DNA from: Qubevirus faecium
DNA length: 4,241 nt
Sequence record: FJ539132.1
Reading direction: 5' to 3' (one strand)
Shown: in pieces, positions 1-4,137 of the stretch
Numbering within the stretch: position 1 is the first letter of the stretch
How the letters are laid out: each line of letters starts with the position of its first letter
Made by a program: the position numbers and the translations under genes
Notes under the pieces: generated by a model
Told to the model about the DNA's origin: nothing
The model's input: only the letters and a program-made list of their open reading frames with translations
The model's database searches: none

Positions 1-51
1 GGGGTAGGCCCCGTAAGGGGCCTGCCTTCACCGCACTACAGAGGAGAATCT
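1..51 (+). promoter_or_regulatory. 5' untranslated leader with terminal GGGG and a 5'-proximal hairpin (stem 5-12 / 17-24, GUAA tetraloop 13-16)
   Basis: Seen: AGGCCCC (6-12) is the exact reverse complement of GGGGCCT (17-23), extended by a U5-G24 wobble, with a GNRA-type loop GUAA. Established: Qbeta and MS2 RNAs begin with G-runs followed by a stable 5' hairpin; the complement of this end is the 3' CCC initiation site of the minus strand. Confidence 0.7.
41..46 (+). promoter_or_regulatory. Shine-Dalgarno sequence (GAGGAG) for the maturation protein gene
   Basis: Seen: GAGGAG at 41-46, 5 nt upstream of ATG 52. Confidence 0.7.
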
Positions 52-1374
52 ATGCCAGCCCTACCAAGAGGTCTTCGCTTTGGTTCGAATGGCGAAATCT
101 TAAACGATTTCAACGAGCTCTGGTTTCCGGAGCTCGTCTCATCCGAATTGAACTTAGGAACCTATAACCTCACGGGTTACATTAGTAACCTGCCGGGATA
201 CGAAGTGAAGGAGCGCAATAAAGGCTCTCATGTGCTTCGAACACCGTACCGTAGTACCGTGCCAGTAAACCATCTTGGATACAGGCCGGTTACGACAGTA
301 GAGTATAATCCACTGGGAACTTTCATCCGCCTGGATGGGGATGTAAAGTTTTCCGGAGGCTTGGTTAGCGCGTCGCTTAGACTTGACAACTACGTTGTCG
401 GTCTGGCTTCGCAGGCCGGTTTCGATTACCAGTCGGTAATCGGACCAAGGTTCTCATCGCAATTCTCCGCGTTTAGTACCAAATATGGTACTTTGCTCGG
501 GGAAGGGAGAGAAACACTTAGTTATCTTCTCCTGCTGTTTCGCAGAGTACGTGAAGGGATCCGCGCCGTAAGGCGTGGAGATCTCAAGCGTCTCAGGAAT
601 CTGGTTAGGAGCTACGAACCGACGTCCGTGAATGGACGTCGACAAGCAGCCTCCTTTTCAGGGACCTATCGCGACGAACTTGCCAATGGCAAGTGGAAAG
701 ACAGTAGTGCGAGCGACCTGTGGCTCGAATTCCGTTATGGGTTGATGCCGTTGTTCTACGACATACAATCTTTAATGGAAGACTTCATGCGTGTTCATAA
801 GAAAATCGCAAAAATTCAGCGATTCTCGGCTGGGCACGGTAAGCTCGTTGAGGTGTCCGGGACTTTCTACCCGGATGTCCACTTCGGCCTTGAGGTCACC
901 GCAGTGTTGCAGCGGCGTCATCGTTGGGGTGTCATATACCAGGATACTGGTTCTTATGCCACTTTCGACAATGGTCGGCTGGTCCCGGTGAAGGACTGGC
1001 AGACAGCGGCGTTTGCACTCCTTAACCCGGCTGAAACTGCATGGGAATTAACACCCTACAGTTTCGTTGCGGATTGGTTTGTGAACGTTGGTGATATGCT
1101 CGAGCAGATCGGACAACTCTATCGGCACGTCGACGTTGTCGACGGCTTTGATAGAAAGGACGTGAAACTCCGTAGCGTATCCGTGCGCGTGATTGCGAAC
1201 GGTGCAACGAACACACAGTTTGTCCTAAGACGAGCTAGTTTGTTGCATAGTTTCTATTCGCGCGTACATACCGTTGCGTTTCCGCAAATTTCACCACAAC
1301 TCGATACTGAGGTACGTAGCGTTAAGCACGTTATCGACAGTATCGCCCTTCTAACTCAGCGTTTTAAACGCTAA
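52..1374 (+). CDS. A2: Maturation protein (A2 / A protein), the pilus-binding virion protein; in Qbeta-type phages it also acts as the lysis protein
   Basis: Seen: 440-codon ORF, ATG at 52 with SD upstream, TAA stop at 1372-1374, first gene of the genome. Recalled: N-terminus MPALPRGLRFGSNGEILNDFNELWFPEL and internal blocks (FSAFS.KYGT, RAV.RGDL, LWLEFRYGLMPLFYDI, AWELTPYSFV.DWF.NVGDML, VVDGFDR.D, HV.DSI.LLTQR.KR) match Qbeta A2. Lysis function is inference from the Qbeta paradigm. Confidence 0.93.
   Translation: MPALPRGLRFGSNGEILNDFNELWFPELVSSELNLGTYNLTGYISNLPGYEVKERNKGSHVLRTPYRSTVPVNHLGYRPVTTVEYNPLGTFIRLDGDVKFSGGLVSASLRLDNYVVGLASQAGFDYQSVIGPRFSSQFSAFSTKYGTLLGEGRETLSYLLLLFRRVREGIRAVRRGDLKRLRNLVRSYEPTSVNGRRQAASFSGTYRDELANGKWKDSSASDLWLEFRYGLMPLFYDIQSLMEDFMRVHKKIAKIQRFSAGHGKLVEVSGTFYPDVHFGLEVTAVLQRRHRWGVIYQDTGSYATFDNGRLVPVKDWQTAAFALLNPAETAWELTPYSFVADWFVNVGDMLEQIGQLYRHVDVVDGFDRKDVKLRSVSVRVIANGATNTQFVLRRASLLHSFYSRVHTVAFPQISPQLDTEVRSVKHVIDSIALLTQRFKR
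1358..1372 (+). other. Small hairpin at the 3' end of the maturation gene (stem 1358-1363 / 1367-1372, loop UUA), overlapping the stop codon
   Basis: Seen: AGCGTT (1358-1363) pairs with AACGCT (1367-1372) around a 3-nt loop; UAA stop at 1372-1374. Function not determined from sequence. Confidence 0.4.
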
Positions 1375-1394: not shown

Positions 1395-1793
1395 ATGGCA
1401 AAATTAAATCAGGTAACACTTACCAAATTAGGTAAGGCGGGCGATCAGACTTTAACTCTTACTCCACGTGGGGTAAATCCCACTAACGGAGTGGCGTCGC
1501 TGTCCGAAGCTGGTGCTGTACCGGCTCTCGAGAAGCGAGTAACTGTGTCAGTTGCTCAGCCATCCCGTAACCGTAAGAACTATAAAGTTCAGATTAAGCT
1601 CCAAAACCCGACTGCATGCACGAAGGACGCATGTGACCCATCTGTGACGCGTTCCGCGTTCGCGGACCTAACGCTTTCGTTCACGTCGTATTCTACTGAC
1701 GCTGAACGTGCGCTGATTCGCACTGAATTGGCGGCTCTGTTGCAAGATCCTCTGATTGTCGATGCAATCGATAATCTGAACCCTGCATACTGA
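1395..1793 (+). CDS. Major coat (capsid) protein, 132 aa, terminated by a leaky UGA
   Basis: Seen: ATG at 1395 (the track's 1389 start is an upstream in-frame TTG giving MIM...; ATG 1395 gives MAKLNQ...), TGA at 1791-1793, two cysteines in ACTKDACD. Recalled: near-identity to Qbeta coat across PRGVNPTNGVASLS, PALEKRVTVSV, QPSRNRKNYKVQ, CDPSVTR, and C-terminal DAID.LNPAY. Confidence 0.95.
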   Translation: MAKLNQVTLTKLGKAGDQTLTLTPRGVNPTNGVASLSEAGAVPALEKRVTVSVAQPSRNRKNYKVQIKLQNPTACTKDACDPSVTRSAFADLTLSFTSYSTDAERALIRTELAALLQDPLIVDAIDNLNPAY

Positions 1794-2387
1794 GCGGCGT
1801 TATTGGCAGCCTCGTCTAGCGGTGGGGATAACCCAAAGCCAGACGTTCCGGATCGTCCAGACGTCAAACCGCCAGGCGGAACGGGCAGCTATCGCTGTCC
1901 GTTTACCTGTTACCGCCTCGGTAATATCATCGAGGTAGGGCAAAACGGTTCTCCTGACATCTATGCCAGGGGAGACGAGGTCCAGGTTATGTTCGATTAT
2001 GCTCTCGAGGATTTCCTTGGGAACACCAATTGGCGTAACTGGGATCAGCGACTATCAAATTATGATATAGCTAATCGTCGTCGTTGCCGAGGCAATGGTT
2101 ACGTTGACCTGGACGCAACTGCGATGCAGACCGACAGCTTTGTGCTATCCGGTAAGTATCCAGTGCGGAAGGTCAAGTTTCCAGGTGCCTTTGGCGCCCT
2201 CAAGTATCTCCTTAACATAAAGGATGATGCCTGGGTGGACTTGTCCGAGGTAACGGCCTACCGTTCCTATGGAATGGTCATCGGTTTCTGGACGGACTCT
2301 AAGAGCCCGCAGCTGCCGAGTGACTTCACCCAATTTGACAGTACGAATTGTCCTGTTCAGACGGTGATCGTCATACCCTCACTTTAA
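1395..2387 (+). CDS. A1: Read-through minor capsid protein A1 (coat plus C-terminal extension, about 330 aa with UGA decoded as Trp)
   Basis: Seen: the coat frame and the 1803-2387 ORF are the same reading frame (1395 and 1803 are both 0 mod 3); the track's M at 1803 is a TTG inside the extension, not an independent start. Recalled: extension blocks match the Qbeta A1 read-through domain (KPD.P..PD..PPGGTG.Y.CPF, LGNT.WR.WD.RLS, CRGNGY.DLDAT, PGAFG, VIGFW.D, FDFT.FD.T.CP.Q.VIV.P). Confidence 0.85.
1791..1793 (+). promoter_or_regulatory. Leaky UGA stop codon: programmed translational read-through site between coat and the A1 extension
   Basis: Seen: TGA at 1791-1793 is followed by an in-frame open frame of 197 sense codons up to TAA 2385-2387. 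Established: Qbeta coat UGA is occasionally read as Trp to make A1. Confidence 0.85.
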
Positions 2388-2395
2388 GCAACTTA

Positions 2396-2401
2396 AAGGA
2401 G
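2396..2401 (+). promoter_or_regulatory. Shine-Dalgarno sequence (AAGGAG) for the replicase gene
   Basis: Seen: AAGGAG at 2396-2401, 5 nt upstream of ATG 2407. Confidence 0.75.
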
Positions 2402-2402
2402 A

Positions 2403-2422
2403 TAGCATGTCTAAGACAGCTA
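2403..2422 (+). promoter_or_regulatory. Coat-protein translational operator hairpin covering the replicase start codon (8-bp stem, bulged A2407, 3-nt loop UAA 2412-2414)
   Basis: Seen: UAGC-A-UGUC (2403-2411) pairs with GACAGCUA (2415-2422); the unpaired bulge A is the A of the AUG at 2407-2409. Recalled: the Qbeta operator has the same 8-bp stem, bulged A and 3-nt loop, and coat dimers bind it to repress replicase translation. Confidence 0.75.
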
Positions 2423-4137
2423 GTCACAGAAAGAAAATTACTCACCTATTGAGTAAGGTCGACATCGACTTCGAAGACGACATCCATATGTCTATCGCCA
2501 ATGATCTTTTTAAGGCCTTTGGCGTTGCACCACTTACGTCAGCGGAGCAGTGTATCAACACTCCGTTCCCTGACACTTCGATGACTGCTGATGCATTTCG
2601 CATCGCGTATCTGCGGTCAGAGATCCTTAGTAAGTATAGTGCGCACCCTCTCGGTATTGATACCGAAGCAGTAGCTTGGGAGAAGTTCCTAGCTGCTGAA
2701 GAGGGCTGTAGACAAACGAACGAACGACTGTCGCAGGCTAAGTACCATGACAATTCCATTTTGTCATGGGGCGAGCGTGTTATCCACACTGCTCGTCGAA
2801 AAATACTTAAGCTTATAGGCGAGTCTGTTCCGCTCGGGGATGTGGCGCTGCGCTGCCGATTTTCTGGCGGCGCGACGACCTCGGTTAACCGTTTACACGG
2901 CCACCCGTCGTGGAAGCATGCCTGTCCGCAGGATGTTACCAAACGCGCATTCAAATACCTACAAGCGTATAAAATGGCTTGTGGTGACATCGTAGACTTA
3001 CGTGTCAATGAGGTGCGCACTTCGAATAAAGCAGTCACTGTTCCAAAGAACAGTAAGACCGATCGTTGCATTGCCATCGAACCCGGATGGAATATGTTTT
3101 TCCAACTGGGTGTCGGTGCGGTGCTACGCGATAGGTTGCGCCTTTGGGGGATTGACCTTAATGATCAATCCATCAATCAGCGCCTCGCACGCGATGCGTC
3201 ACAGCTTGACCATTTGGCCACTGTTGACTTATCCGCAGCAAGTGATTCAATCAGCCTTAAGCTGGTGGAGTTACTACTACCGCCTGACTGGTTTGGCGTC
3301 CTGACCGATCTCCGATCGGATCAGGGTATCCTACCTGATGGGCGTGCCGTTACCTACGAGAAAATATCCTCCATGGGTAATGGCTACACTTTCGAGCTTG
3401 AGTCGCTCATATTTGCAGCGATCGCTCGGAGTGTGTGCGAGTTACTGGATCTTGACCAATCAACTGTCAGCGTGTACGGAGATGATATAATCATCGATTC
3501 CCGTGCTGCTGCAACCCTTATGGATGTGTTCGAGTACGTTGGGTTCACCCCTAACAGAAAGAAGACCTTTGTAAGTGGTCCCTTTAGAGAGTCGTGCGGA
3601 AAGCACTGGCACTCTGGGGTTGATGTAACGCCTTTTTACATACGCCGCCCAATACGTTGCCTAGTCGACATGATACTTGTTCTGAATAGTATCTATCGGT
3701 GGGGCACGATTGACGGCGTATGGGATCCTAGGGTGCTGCCCGTATACCAGAAGTACGTGAATATGCTGCCGAGAAATTGGCGGCGTAACACGATACCTGA
3801 TGGTTACGGAGACGGCGCTCTCGTCGGATTGGCTACAACGAATCCGTTTGTTATAGTCAAGAATTTCTCGAGACTATACCCGGTATTAGTTGAAGTCCAG
3901 AAGGACGTCAAGCGTCACGAGTACGGCAGTTATTTATATGCCATGCTACGCGACCGCGAGACACGTTACAATCCCTTCCTGCGTGTCGCAGATGGGACTG
4001 GGTTTGATGAAGCACCGCTAGCTACTAGCCTTCGTCGCAAGACAGGTCGGTACAAAGTGGCGTGGATTCAGGACAGTGCCTTCATCCGGCCCCCGTATTT
4101 TCTTACGGGACTTCCCGAGGTGAAGCTTGCTAGCTAG
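2407..4137 (+). CDS. RNA-dependent RNA polymerase, replicase beta subunit (576 aa)
   Basis: Seen: ATG 2407 with SD, TAG stop at 4135-4137; palm motifs in frame: motif A TVDLSAASDSI (3220-3252), motif B SSMGNGYTFELESLIF (3367-3414), motif C YGDD (3475-3486). Recalled: N-terminus MSKTAS and many blocks (GIDTEAVAWEKFLAAE, CRFSGGATT, NKAVTVPKNSKTDRCIAIEPGWNMFFQLG, YEKISSMGNGYTFELESLIFA, FRESCGKH, TIDGVWDPR, IPDGYGDGALVG) match Qbeta replicase. Confidence 0.96.
   Translation: MSKTASHRKKITHLLSKVDIDFEDDIHMSIANDLFKAFGVAPLTSAEQCINTPFPDTSMTADAFRIAYLRSEILSKYSAHPLGIDTEAVAWEKFLAAEEGCRQTNERLSQAKYHDNSILSWGERVIHTARRKILKLIGESVPLGDVALRCRFSGGATTSVNRLHGHPSWKHACPQDVTKRAFKYLQAYKMACGDIVDLRVNEVRTSNKAVTVPKNSKTDRCIAIEPGWNMFFQLGVGAVLRDRLRLWGIDLNDQSINQRLARDASQLDHLATVDLSAASDSISLKLVELLLPPDWFGVLTDLRSDQGILPDGRAVTYEKISSMGNGYTFELESLIFAAIARSVCELLDLDQSTVSVYGDDIIIDSRAAATLMDVFEYVGFTPNRKKTFVSGPFRESCGKHWHSGVDVTPFYIRRPIRCLVDMILVLNSIYRWGTIDGVWDPRVLPVYQKYVNMLPRNWRRNTIPDGYGDGALVGLATTNPFVIVKNFSRLYPVLVEVQKDVKRHEYGSYLYAMLRDRETRYNPFLRVADGTGFDEAPLATSLRRKTGRYKVAWIQDSAFIRPPYFLTGLPEVKLAS
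3475..3486 (+). other. RdRp catalytic motif C (YGDD) within the replicase
   Basis: Seen: TAC GGA GAT GAT in the replicase frame (codon offset 356 from ATG 2407). Established: YGDD is the catalytic motif of levivirus replicases. Confidence 0.9.

Follow-up and report, generated by a model that had tools for sequence, protein, structure and literature searches.

That the maturation protein A2 is also the lysis protein of the genus Qubevirus is the standard view of these RNA phages, already known and ordinary, and its details come from Qbeta. In that phage, the alpha-region of A2 is enclosed by the capsid and sits on the RNA; the beta-region is exposed and is contacted by MurA, chiefly at residues 30-120, and the shortest lytic fragment comprises residues 1-180 (PMC12856241, citing Cui et al. 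2017). Moreover, mutagenesis indicates that the C-terminal segment T415-R417 of Qbeta A2 is needed both for lysis by the free protein and for infectivity (PMC12856241). The subject of this report is the A2 gene of another member of the genus, Qubevirus faecium, as found in sequence record FJ539132.1, a stretch of 4241 nucleotides (nt) that was analyzed at its full length and is called the window throughout. The original prediction, made from the letters of this stretch, held that a dedicated lysis gene is missing from the genome and that A2 probably serves as its single-gene lysis factor.

The window is a complete allolevivirus genome of group IV, i.e., of the FI/SP/NL95 lineage of Q. faecium, and its genes follow the order A2, coat, A1 read-through, and replicase, as in the annotated FI, NL95, and SP records. 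We consider it probable that this genome lacks a dedicated lysis gene and that host lysis is caused by A2, with inhibition of MurA as the most likely mechanism. As judged from the sequence, A2 is the best candidate for the lysis factor in the window because no alternative open reading frame (ORF) is conserved, because the genes have the A2/coat/A1/replicase layout, and because the annotation of the genus agrees; in the GenBank notes of NL95 and FI, the A protein is described as "involved in particle maturation and bacterial lysis".

By analogy with Qbeta, A2 would cause lysis with MurA as its target, and it would play the same double role as its Qbeta counterpart, namely that of the lysis factor and that of a protein present once per virion, by which both the RNA and the F pilus are bound. 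As A2 accumulates, its exposed N-terminal beta-region would bind substrate-liganded MurA; the first committed step of peptidoglycan synthesis would then be blocked, and the growing cell would lyse.

The A2 protein of the window

The protein encoded by the window had been described as an A2 homologue that is recognizably related to that of Qbeta yet diverged, and this description is borne out by an alignment that is colinear from end to end, with about 50% identity. In phmmer, residues 1-440 of the window A2 align to residues 1-420 of Qbeta A2 (PDB 5vlz/5vm7) with an E value of 5e-121. In addition, the protein matches the Pfam family PF03863 (Phage_mat-A) with E 4.5e-85 and 286.6 bits, versus a curated cut-off of 25, and PHROG 4286 over its full length (E 4.7e-139).

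An AlphaFold2 model of the window A2, made with a 25-sequence alignment and having a mean predicted local distance difference test (pLDDT) value of 72.6, finds its best Foldseek match in the crystal structure of Qbeta A2, 5mnt (E 1.8e-36, TM 0.64-0.68). The N-terminal 120 residues are modeled as beta-strands with pLDDT values of 75-91, and the long helical region comprises helices 127-174, 178-187, 193-205, and 220-255. At its C-terminus, the protein reads LLTQRFKR, with the T-Q-R of the Qbeta segment intact.

The substitutions among group IV A2 proteins concentrate in amino acids (aa) 30-60, aa 104-112, and an insertion described below. The closest relatives compared are five metagenome contigs from Logan (L012-L016), with about 91% nt identity to the window, and in the comparison with them two hot spots are seen, one in aa 104-112 of the beta-region (L104P, S106N, A107G, S108A, R110T, D112S) and one in aa 185-212, around the insertion, the protein being otherwise conserved. 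A separate observation regards the NL95 record (L002, AF059243), in which A2 reads EQTRPALSVNVD at aa ~352-361, with one residue extra, where all the other group IV and group III proteins have EQ(I/M/Q)GQLY(R/H)(H/N)(V/I)D; from its sequence, this anomaly seems to stem either from a frameshift that was compensated or from an error in the sequencing of an old record.

With 440 aa versus 420 aa, the window A2 is indeed about 20 residues longer than Qbeta A2, as first estimated. The excess is mainly one 22-aa insertion, offset by a few indels of 1-2 residues. The insertion is present in every group IV A2, including those of HB-P24 (441 aa), NL95 (442 aa), and FI (438 aa), and it holds 9 additional residues in SP, BR1, and BR8, whose A2 proteins have 450 aa; in the alignments, the group III proteins and more distant relatives are without it. 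In the model, the insertion is partly helix (193-205), with pLDDT values of ~57-77, and is located inside the helical region. It also has the highest ratio of nonsynonymous to synonymous substitution rates (dN/dS) in A2, 0.44 versus 0.19 overall, and on these sequence comparisons it is the least constrained part of the protein. Because the insertion occurs throughout group IV and lies in the helical region, the extra length is typical of the clade and remote from the reported MurA interface. The implication that this length is peculiar to the window and bears on the MurA surface was therefore not sustained, the insertion being clade-wide and outside the beta-region, with which Qbeta A2 contacts MurA, and in the model the extra length has no obvious bearing on MurA binding.

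Another A2 relative from Logan, P0008 (421 aa), is 52-55% identical to the window A2, displays the group IV-like motifs RTPHRATVPVNHLGYRPVTTV, and does not have the 22-aa insertion. By its sequence, it is an intermediate lineage, which suggests that the insertion arose within the FI/SP clade.

Other reading frames and RNA structure

In the search for an embedded lysis gene, all plus-strand stop-free stretches and ORFs of the window were listed, and the candidates were mapped to 10 reference genomes and to the five contigs mentioned above. None of the alternative-frame ORFs of at least 30 codons is conserved, each being broken in some or all of these relatives, and the candidates searched against Pfam and PHROGs gave no family match. 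Likewise, in no alternative-frame ORF of the window do a Shine-Dalgarno-like motif and a hydrophobic segment occur together, and on these three counts the prediction that there is no dedicated lysis gene is supported. Among the alternative-frame starts that open 25 codons or more, TTG 2104 is the sole one to have a Shine-Dalgarno-like motif; the ORF that begins there has 38 codons and no hydrophobic character, and the ORF surrounding this start is interrupted in each of the six group IV reference genomes compared (HB-P24, NL95, SP, FI, BR1, and BR8). The lack of such a motif does not disqualify a candidate by itself, since the coat start is also without one. Table 1 lists the genes of the window, the features of A2, and the frames that received most attention.

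Table 1. Positions in the window of the genes, the A2 features, and the alternative-frame candidates
Feature	Positions	Strand	Basis or remark
Shine-Dalgarno-like GAGGAG upstream of the A2 start	41-46	+	Sequence; Shine-Dalgarno scan
A2 maturation protein gene, 440 aa + stop	52-1374	+	ATG 52, stop 1372-1374; ORF list
A2 aa 30-118, equivalent of Qbeta A2 30-120, beta-region	139-405	+	Mapped by alignment
A2 aa 190-211, insertion PTSVNGRRQAASFSGTYRDELA	619-684	+	Gap between Qbeta H191 and N192
66-codon +1-frame ORF inside A2	791-991	+	Basic N-terminal half, hydrophobic C-terminal half with Leu-Ser
A2 T435-Q436-R437, equivalent of Qbeta T415-Q416-R417	1354-1362	+	Conserved in alignments
Coat protein gene	1395-1793	+	Leaky UGA at 1791-1793; Pfam Levi_coat E 3.5e-56
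A1 read-through extension	1794-2387	+	Coat frame stays open; Pfam Read-through PF16814 E 1.3e-48
34-codon +1-frame ORF, TTG start, across A1 end and replicase start	2348-2452	+	MS2 L position; judged non-functional
Replicase beta-subunit gene, 576 aa	2407-4137	+	Pfam RNA_replicase_B E 1.5e-242
43-codon stop-free +1-frame stretch	2453-2584	+	Lies where Qbeta has the +1 part of its "cryptic lysis gene"
100-codon +1-frame ORF inside the replicase gene	3002-3304	+	ORF list

Regarding the interval between coat and replicase, the coat frame remains open up to the end of A1 and encodes the Read-through domain, so this space is filled by the A1 extension, just as the original prediction had it. The further claim that no short lysis ORF overlaps there was confirmed, with one qualification: there is no gene like L of MS2, but a 34-codon, non-hydrophobic ORF does straddle the A1/replicase junction, and it is the only other-frame ORF that does so. 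It contains no hydrophobic segment (maximum KD17 0.64), and it has no Pfam match, nor was a PHROG match obtained for the 78-aa extended form from close relatives, which was the form searched. Neither its start codon nor its boundaries are conserved across relatives. The stop at 2450-2452 cuts the +1 junction frame in the window, HB-P24, and NL95; in L012-L016, TGG replaces this stop, and the junction ORF reaches 78-81 codons (2329-2574 in L012), and in SP, BR1, and BR8 no stop interrupts the frame over 101-144 codons (2374-2727 in SP, our L003). These versions of 78-144 codons are not hydrophobic either (maximum KD15 0.64-1.37), their starts and ends vary, and the +1 peptides of the junction are basic and rich in S/T/R/L.

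Five shorter candidates, at 1963-2070, 2095-2220, 2840-2995, 3338-3490, and 3890-4021, were rejected as short, non-hydrophobic, and variably broken. On the minus strand, a 211-aa ORF with an ATG start runs antisense to the replicase gene (2442-3077), within a stop-free stretch of 240 codons (2445-3164) whose length is reached by 0.5% of synonymous shuffles. It is found in none of the 16 relatives, whose longest minus-strand stop-free stretches have 87-157 codons and are located elsewhere, and it is probably a chance feature of the strain.

Synonymous-codon diversity was determined over seven group IV genomes, and regions with less than 60% of the gene mean were regarded as low-diversity blocks. 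These are 412-589, 880-952, 1234-1336, 1575-1677, 2407-2509, 2872-2959, and 3952-4137, and they do not coincide with long embedded ORFs. Two of them (1234-1336 and 2872-2959) coincide in part with the S and M regions, which are annotated in SP as replicase-binding, and the last ~190 nt of the replicase gene are the most constrained (0.08-0.13 versus 0.33). The blocks thus probably reflect RNA structure, not overlapping genes.

Long-range complementarities between low-diversity blocks were also noticed (1637-1651/3982-3996; 2644-2652/4206-4214; 501-515/3965-3979). In the window and its clade, the first of them forms all of its 15 pairs, versus 12-14 of the 15 elsewhere in group IV. Moreover, CACCCTCTC can pair with GAGAGGGTG close to the 3' end; this pairing is conserved throughout group IV, and it resembles the long-range pseudoknot of Qbeta RNA. 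No compensatory changes were seen in these complementarities.

Alternatives to the proposed lysis through MurA

Several points weigh against assigning to this A2 the role that it has in Qbeta. Reviews give A2 the lysis function genus-wide but cite experiments on Qbeta only. In Qbeta itself, a mutant A2 with a defect in cytosolic lysis was still compatible with infectious phage, and particle release occurred even when A2 was not functional (2026, PMC12856241), so an A2-independent release exists, at least in that phage. RNA phage lysis genes arise de novo fast and can be strain-specific (PMC7693330); for this reason, the non-conservation of an embedded gene weakens the case for it and does not exclude one. 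In addition, the equivalent of Qbeta residues 30-120, where MurA is contacted, is the least conserved part of A2: identity to Qbeta is 31% there (28/91), versus 76% over residues 1-29, 55% over residues 121-180, and 52% over residues 181-420 (46% over residues 1-180 as a whole), and across groups III and IV just 14 of the 91 positions are invariant.

From this divergence comes the idea that the window A2 lyses the host in a way unlike Qbeta A2, by using another MurA surface or by acting on another step of cell-wall precursor supply. It agrees with the low identity of the contact region, with 17 fixed between-group differences in Qbeta residues 1-180, with a dN of 0.27 in the beta-region, the second highest in A2 (0.42 in the insertion, ~0.10 in the C-terminal part), and with the fact that the mechanistic data on A2 lysis all derive from Qbeta. 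Against it, groups III and IV infect F+ E. coli and therefore encounter an identical MurA, the beta-region keeps its fold and its arrangement of strands at high model confidence, the contact region being modeled entirely as beta-strand, and the block RTP(H/Y)R.TVP....G.RPVTTV.Y.P, which contains most of the invariant positions, is common to both groups. The region is also the most variable one within each group, with an average of 65% identity in group IV, where it is nevertheless under purifying selection (dN/dS 0.21), and Qbeta is itself only 51% identical to MX1/M11 there, so that low identity appears to be tolerated within one functional group. Taken together, the within-group variability, the dN/dS value, the shared E. 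coli MurA, and the conserved T-Q-R argue, at the level of sequence, against a loss of function. To our knowledge, the only structure of the A2-MurA complex was obtained at ~6 Å, and a firm residue-level list of contacts may therefore not exist. Overall, we regard a mechanism different from that of Qbeta as unlikely. Somewhat less likely still is a broader proposal, in which the A2 of group IV lyses via another interface or target, or in which the +1-frame ORF inside A2 or the +1 product at the replicase start was recruited as a second lysis function in part of the group. If it were true, the equation of A2 with a MurA inhibitor would fail genus-wide. Group IV A2 offers a natural test of how far the MurA surface of a "protein antibiotic" can drift, because its contact region differs this much from that of Qbeta while the E. 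coli MurA is the same.

Other explanations place the lysis function outside A2, and the first to consider has a precedent in Qbeta, in which a 67-aa protein lyses cells without A2; its synthesis involves a +1 shift at GAGGUUG close to the replicase start, with a restart at UUG (Nishihara et al. 2004, per PMC12856241). In the Qbeta genome, GAGGTTG is located at replicase nucleotide 69, and the product consists of 24 replicase residues and 43 residues in the +1 frame. The window displays a stop-free +1 stretch at the homologous place, whose peptide is basic and S/T/R/L-rich like that of Qbeta; stop-free +1 stretches of 38-144 codons occur at the replicase start in all 17 genomes compared; synonymous diversity is low at 2407-2509 (0.11-0.19 versus a mean of 0.33); and the release of Qbeta particles in the absence of A2 function would fit such a product. 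These points are offset by others, as the GAGGTTG site is absent from the entire window, and the first start within the stretch comes at codon 16, leaving an ORF of only 27 aa (2501-2584) that has no Shine-Dalgarno motif. The boundaries, starts, and lengths of the stretch differ widely among strains, with an early end in the Qbeta-like BZ1 and MX1, inside the SIANDL-derived segment or directly behind it, and 5.8% of synonymous shuffles leave the window stretch open by chance. As for the low diversity, the replicase start is the site of the coat-binding operator and of other RNA structure, both established for this phage family, which would explain it equally well; RNA structure is the more economical explanation, because diversity is also low at the S and M sites and at the 3' end of the replicase gene. 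We therefore think it very improbable that a +1-frame product from the replicase start causes, or contributes to, lysis in the window. The least credible explanation is that one of the two longer +1-frame ORFs is a genuine lysis gene of recent origin, even if de novo lysis genes are known inside mat and rep (PMC7693330). The ORF inside A2 has a loosely MS2-L-like arrangement with a borderline hydrophobic segment (KD17 1.74), and its frame stays open over 62 codons in L012-L016, SP, BR1, and BR8. In HB-P24, NL95, and FI, however, it is interrupted by additional stops, shuffled sequences typically give an ORF of this length (P = 0.36), and it was judged to be a chance ORF. The ORF inside the replicase gene exceeds 96.6% of synonymous shuffles in length (P = 0.034, uncorrected), a value that is not significant given the six tests made. 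It carries 1-7 internal stops in 15 of the 15 relatives compared, the ~91% identical contigs have GCG in place of its GTG start, and it was judged to be a strain-specific chance ORF. Neither ORF has a Shine-Dalgarno motif or a family match, and in neither case is the synonymous diversity of the surrounding gene lowered across the ORF as a whole, the replicase gene in particular displaying no reduction. With these alternatives weighed, lysis by A2 through MurA remains the reading that we prefer.

Relation to other phages and known lysis systems

In a megablast search of phage records, among which the deposited record of this genome is absent, the best match to the window is 83.8% identical; the full-length matches with 82-84% nt identity are FI strain HB-P24 (FJ539133), NL95, and SP, the FI genome has 80% nt identity, and the Qbeta-like phages give partial matches only, at ~72%. 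The A2 of the window is exactly NCBI entry ACT66749.1 and its replicase is exactly ACT66752.1, both from a 4241-nt record of Q. faecium, so the genome has already been deposited. With the dual role of A2 also accepted beforehand, the present assignment carries little weight as a discovery. An Rfam scan of the window gave zero matches, and a scan for sigma-70 promoters and terminators was disregarded as meaningless for an RNA genome.

Regarding the known lysis systems, the one of MS2 offers the L gene, and the window has its 34-codon ORF at the equivalent junction and in the +1 frame. Unlike MS2 L, this ORF is very short and is without a hydrophobic domain, a family match, or conserved boundaries. 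The cryptic lysis gene of Qbeta likewise has a homologous 43-codon +1 stretch in the window, with a similar peptide composition, but the window stretch lacks GAGGUUG, is preceded by the stop at 2450-2452, and is not conserved as an ORF among strains.

The closest comparison is with Qbeta A2 (5MNT, 5VLZ, 5VM7), from a group III phage, Qubevirus durum. Lysis and MurA inhibition were demonstrated for Qbeta A2 only. The two proteins share the gene position, the Pfam family, the predicted fold, and the C-terminal T-Q-R, and both genomes are without an MS2-type lysis gene. Finally, the group IV phages HB-P24, NL95, SP, FI, BR1, and BR8 have a layout identical to that of the window, with A2 proteins that are 77-84% and replicases that are 84-90% identical to those described here, and their divergence from the window is at the strain level only.

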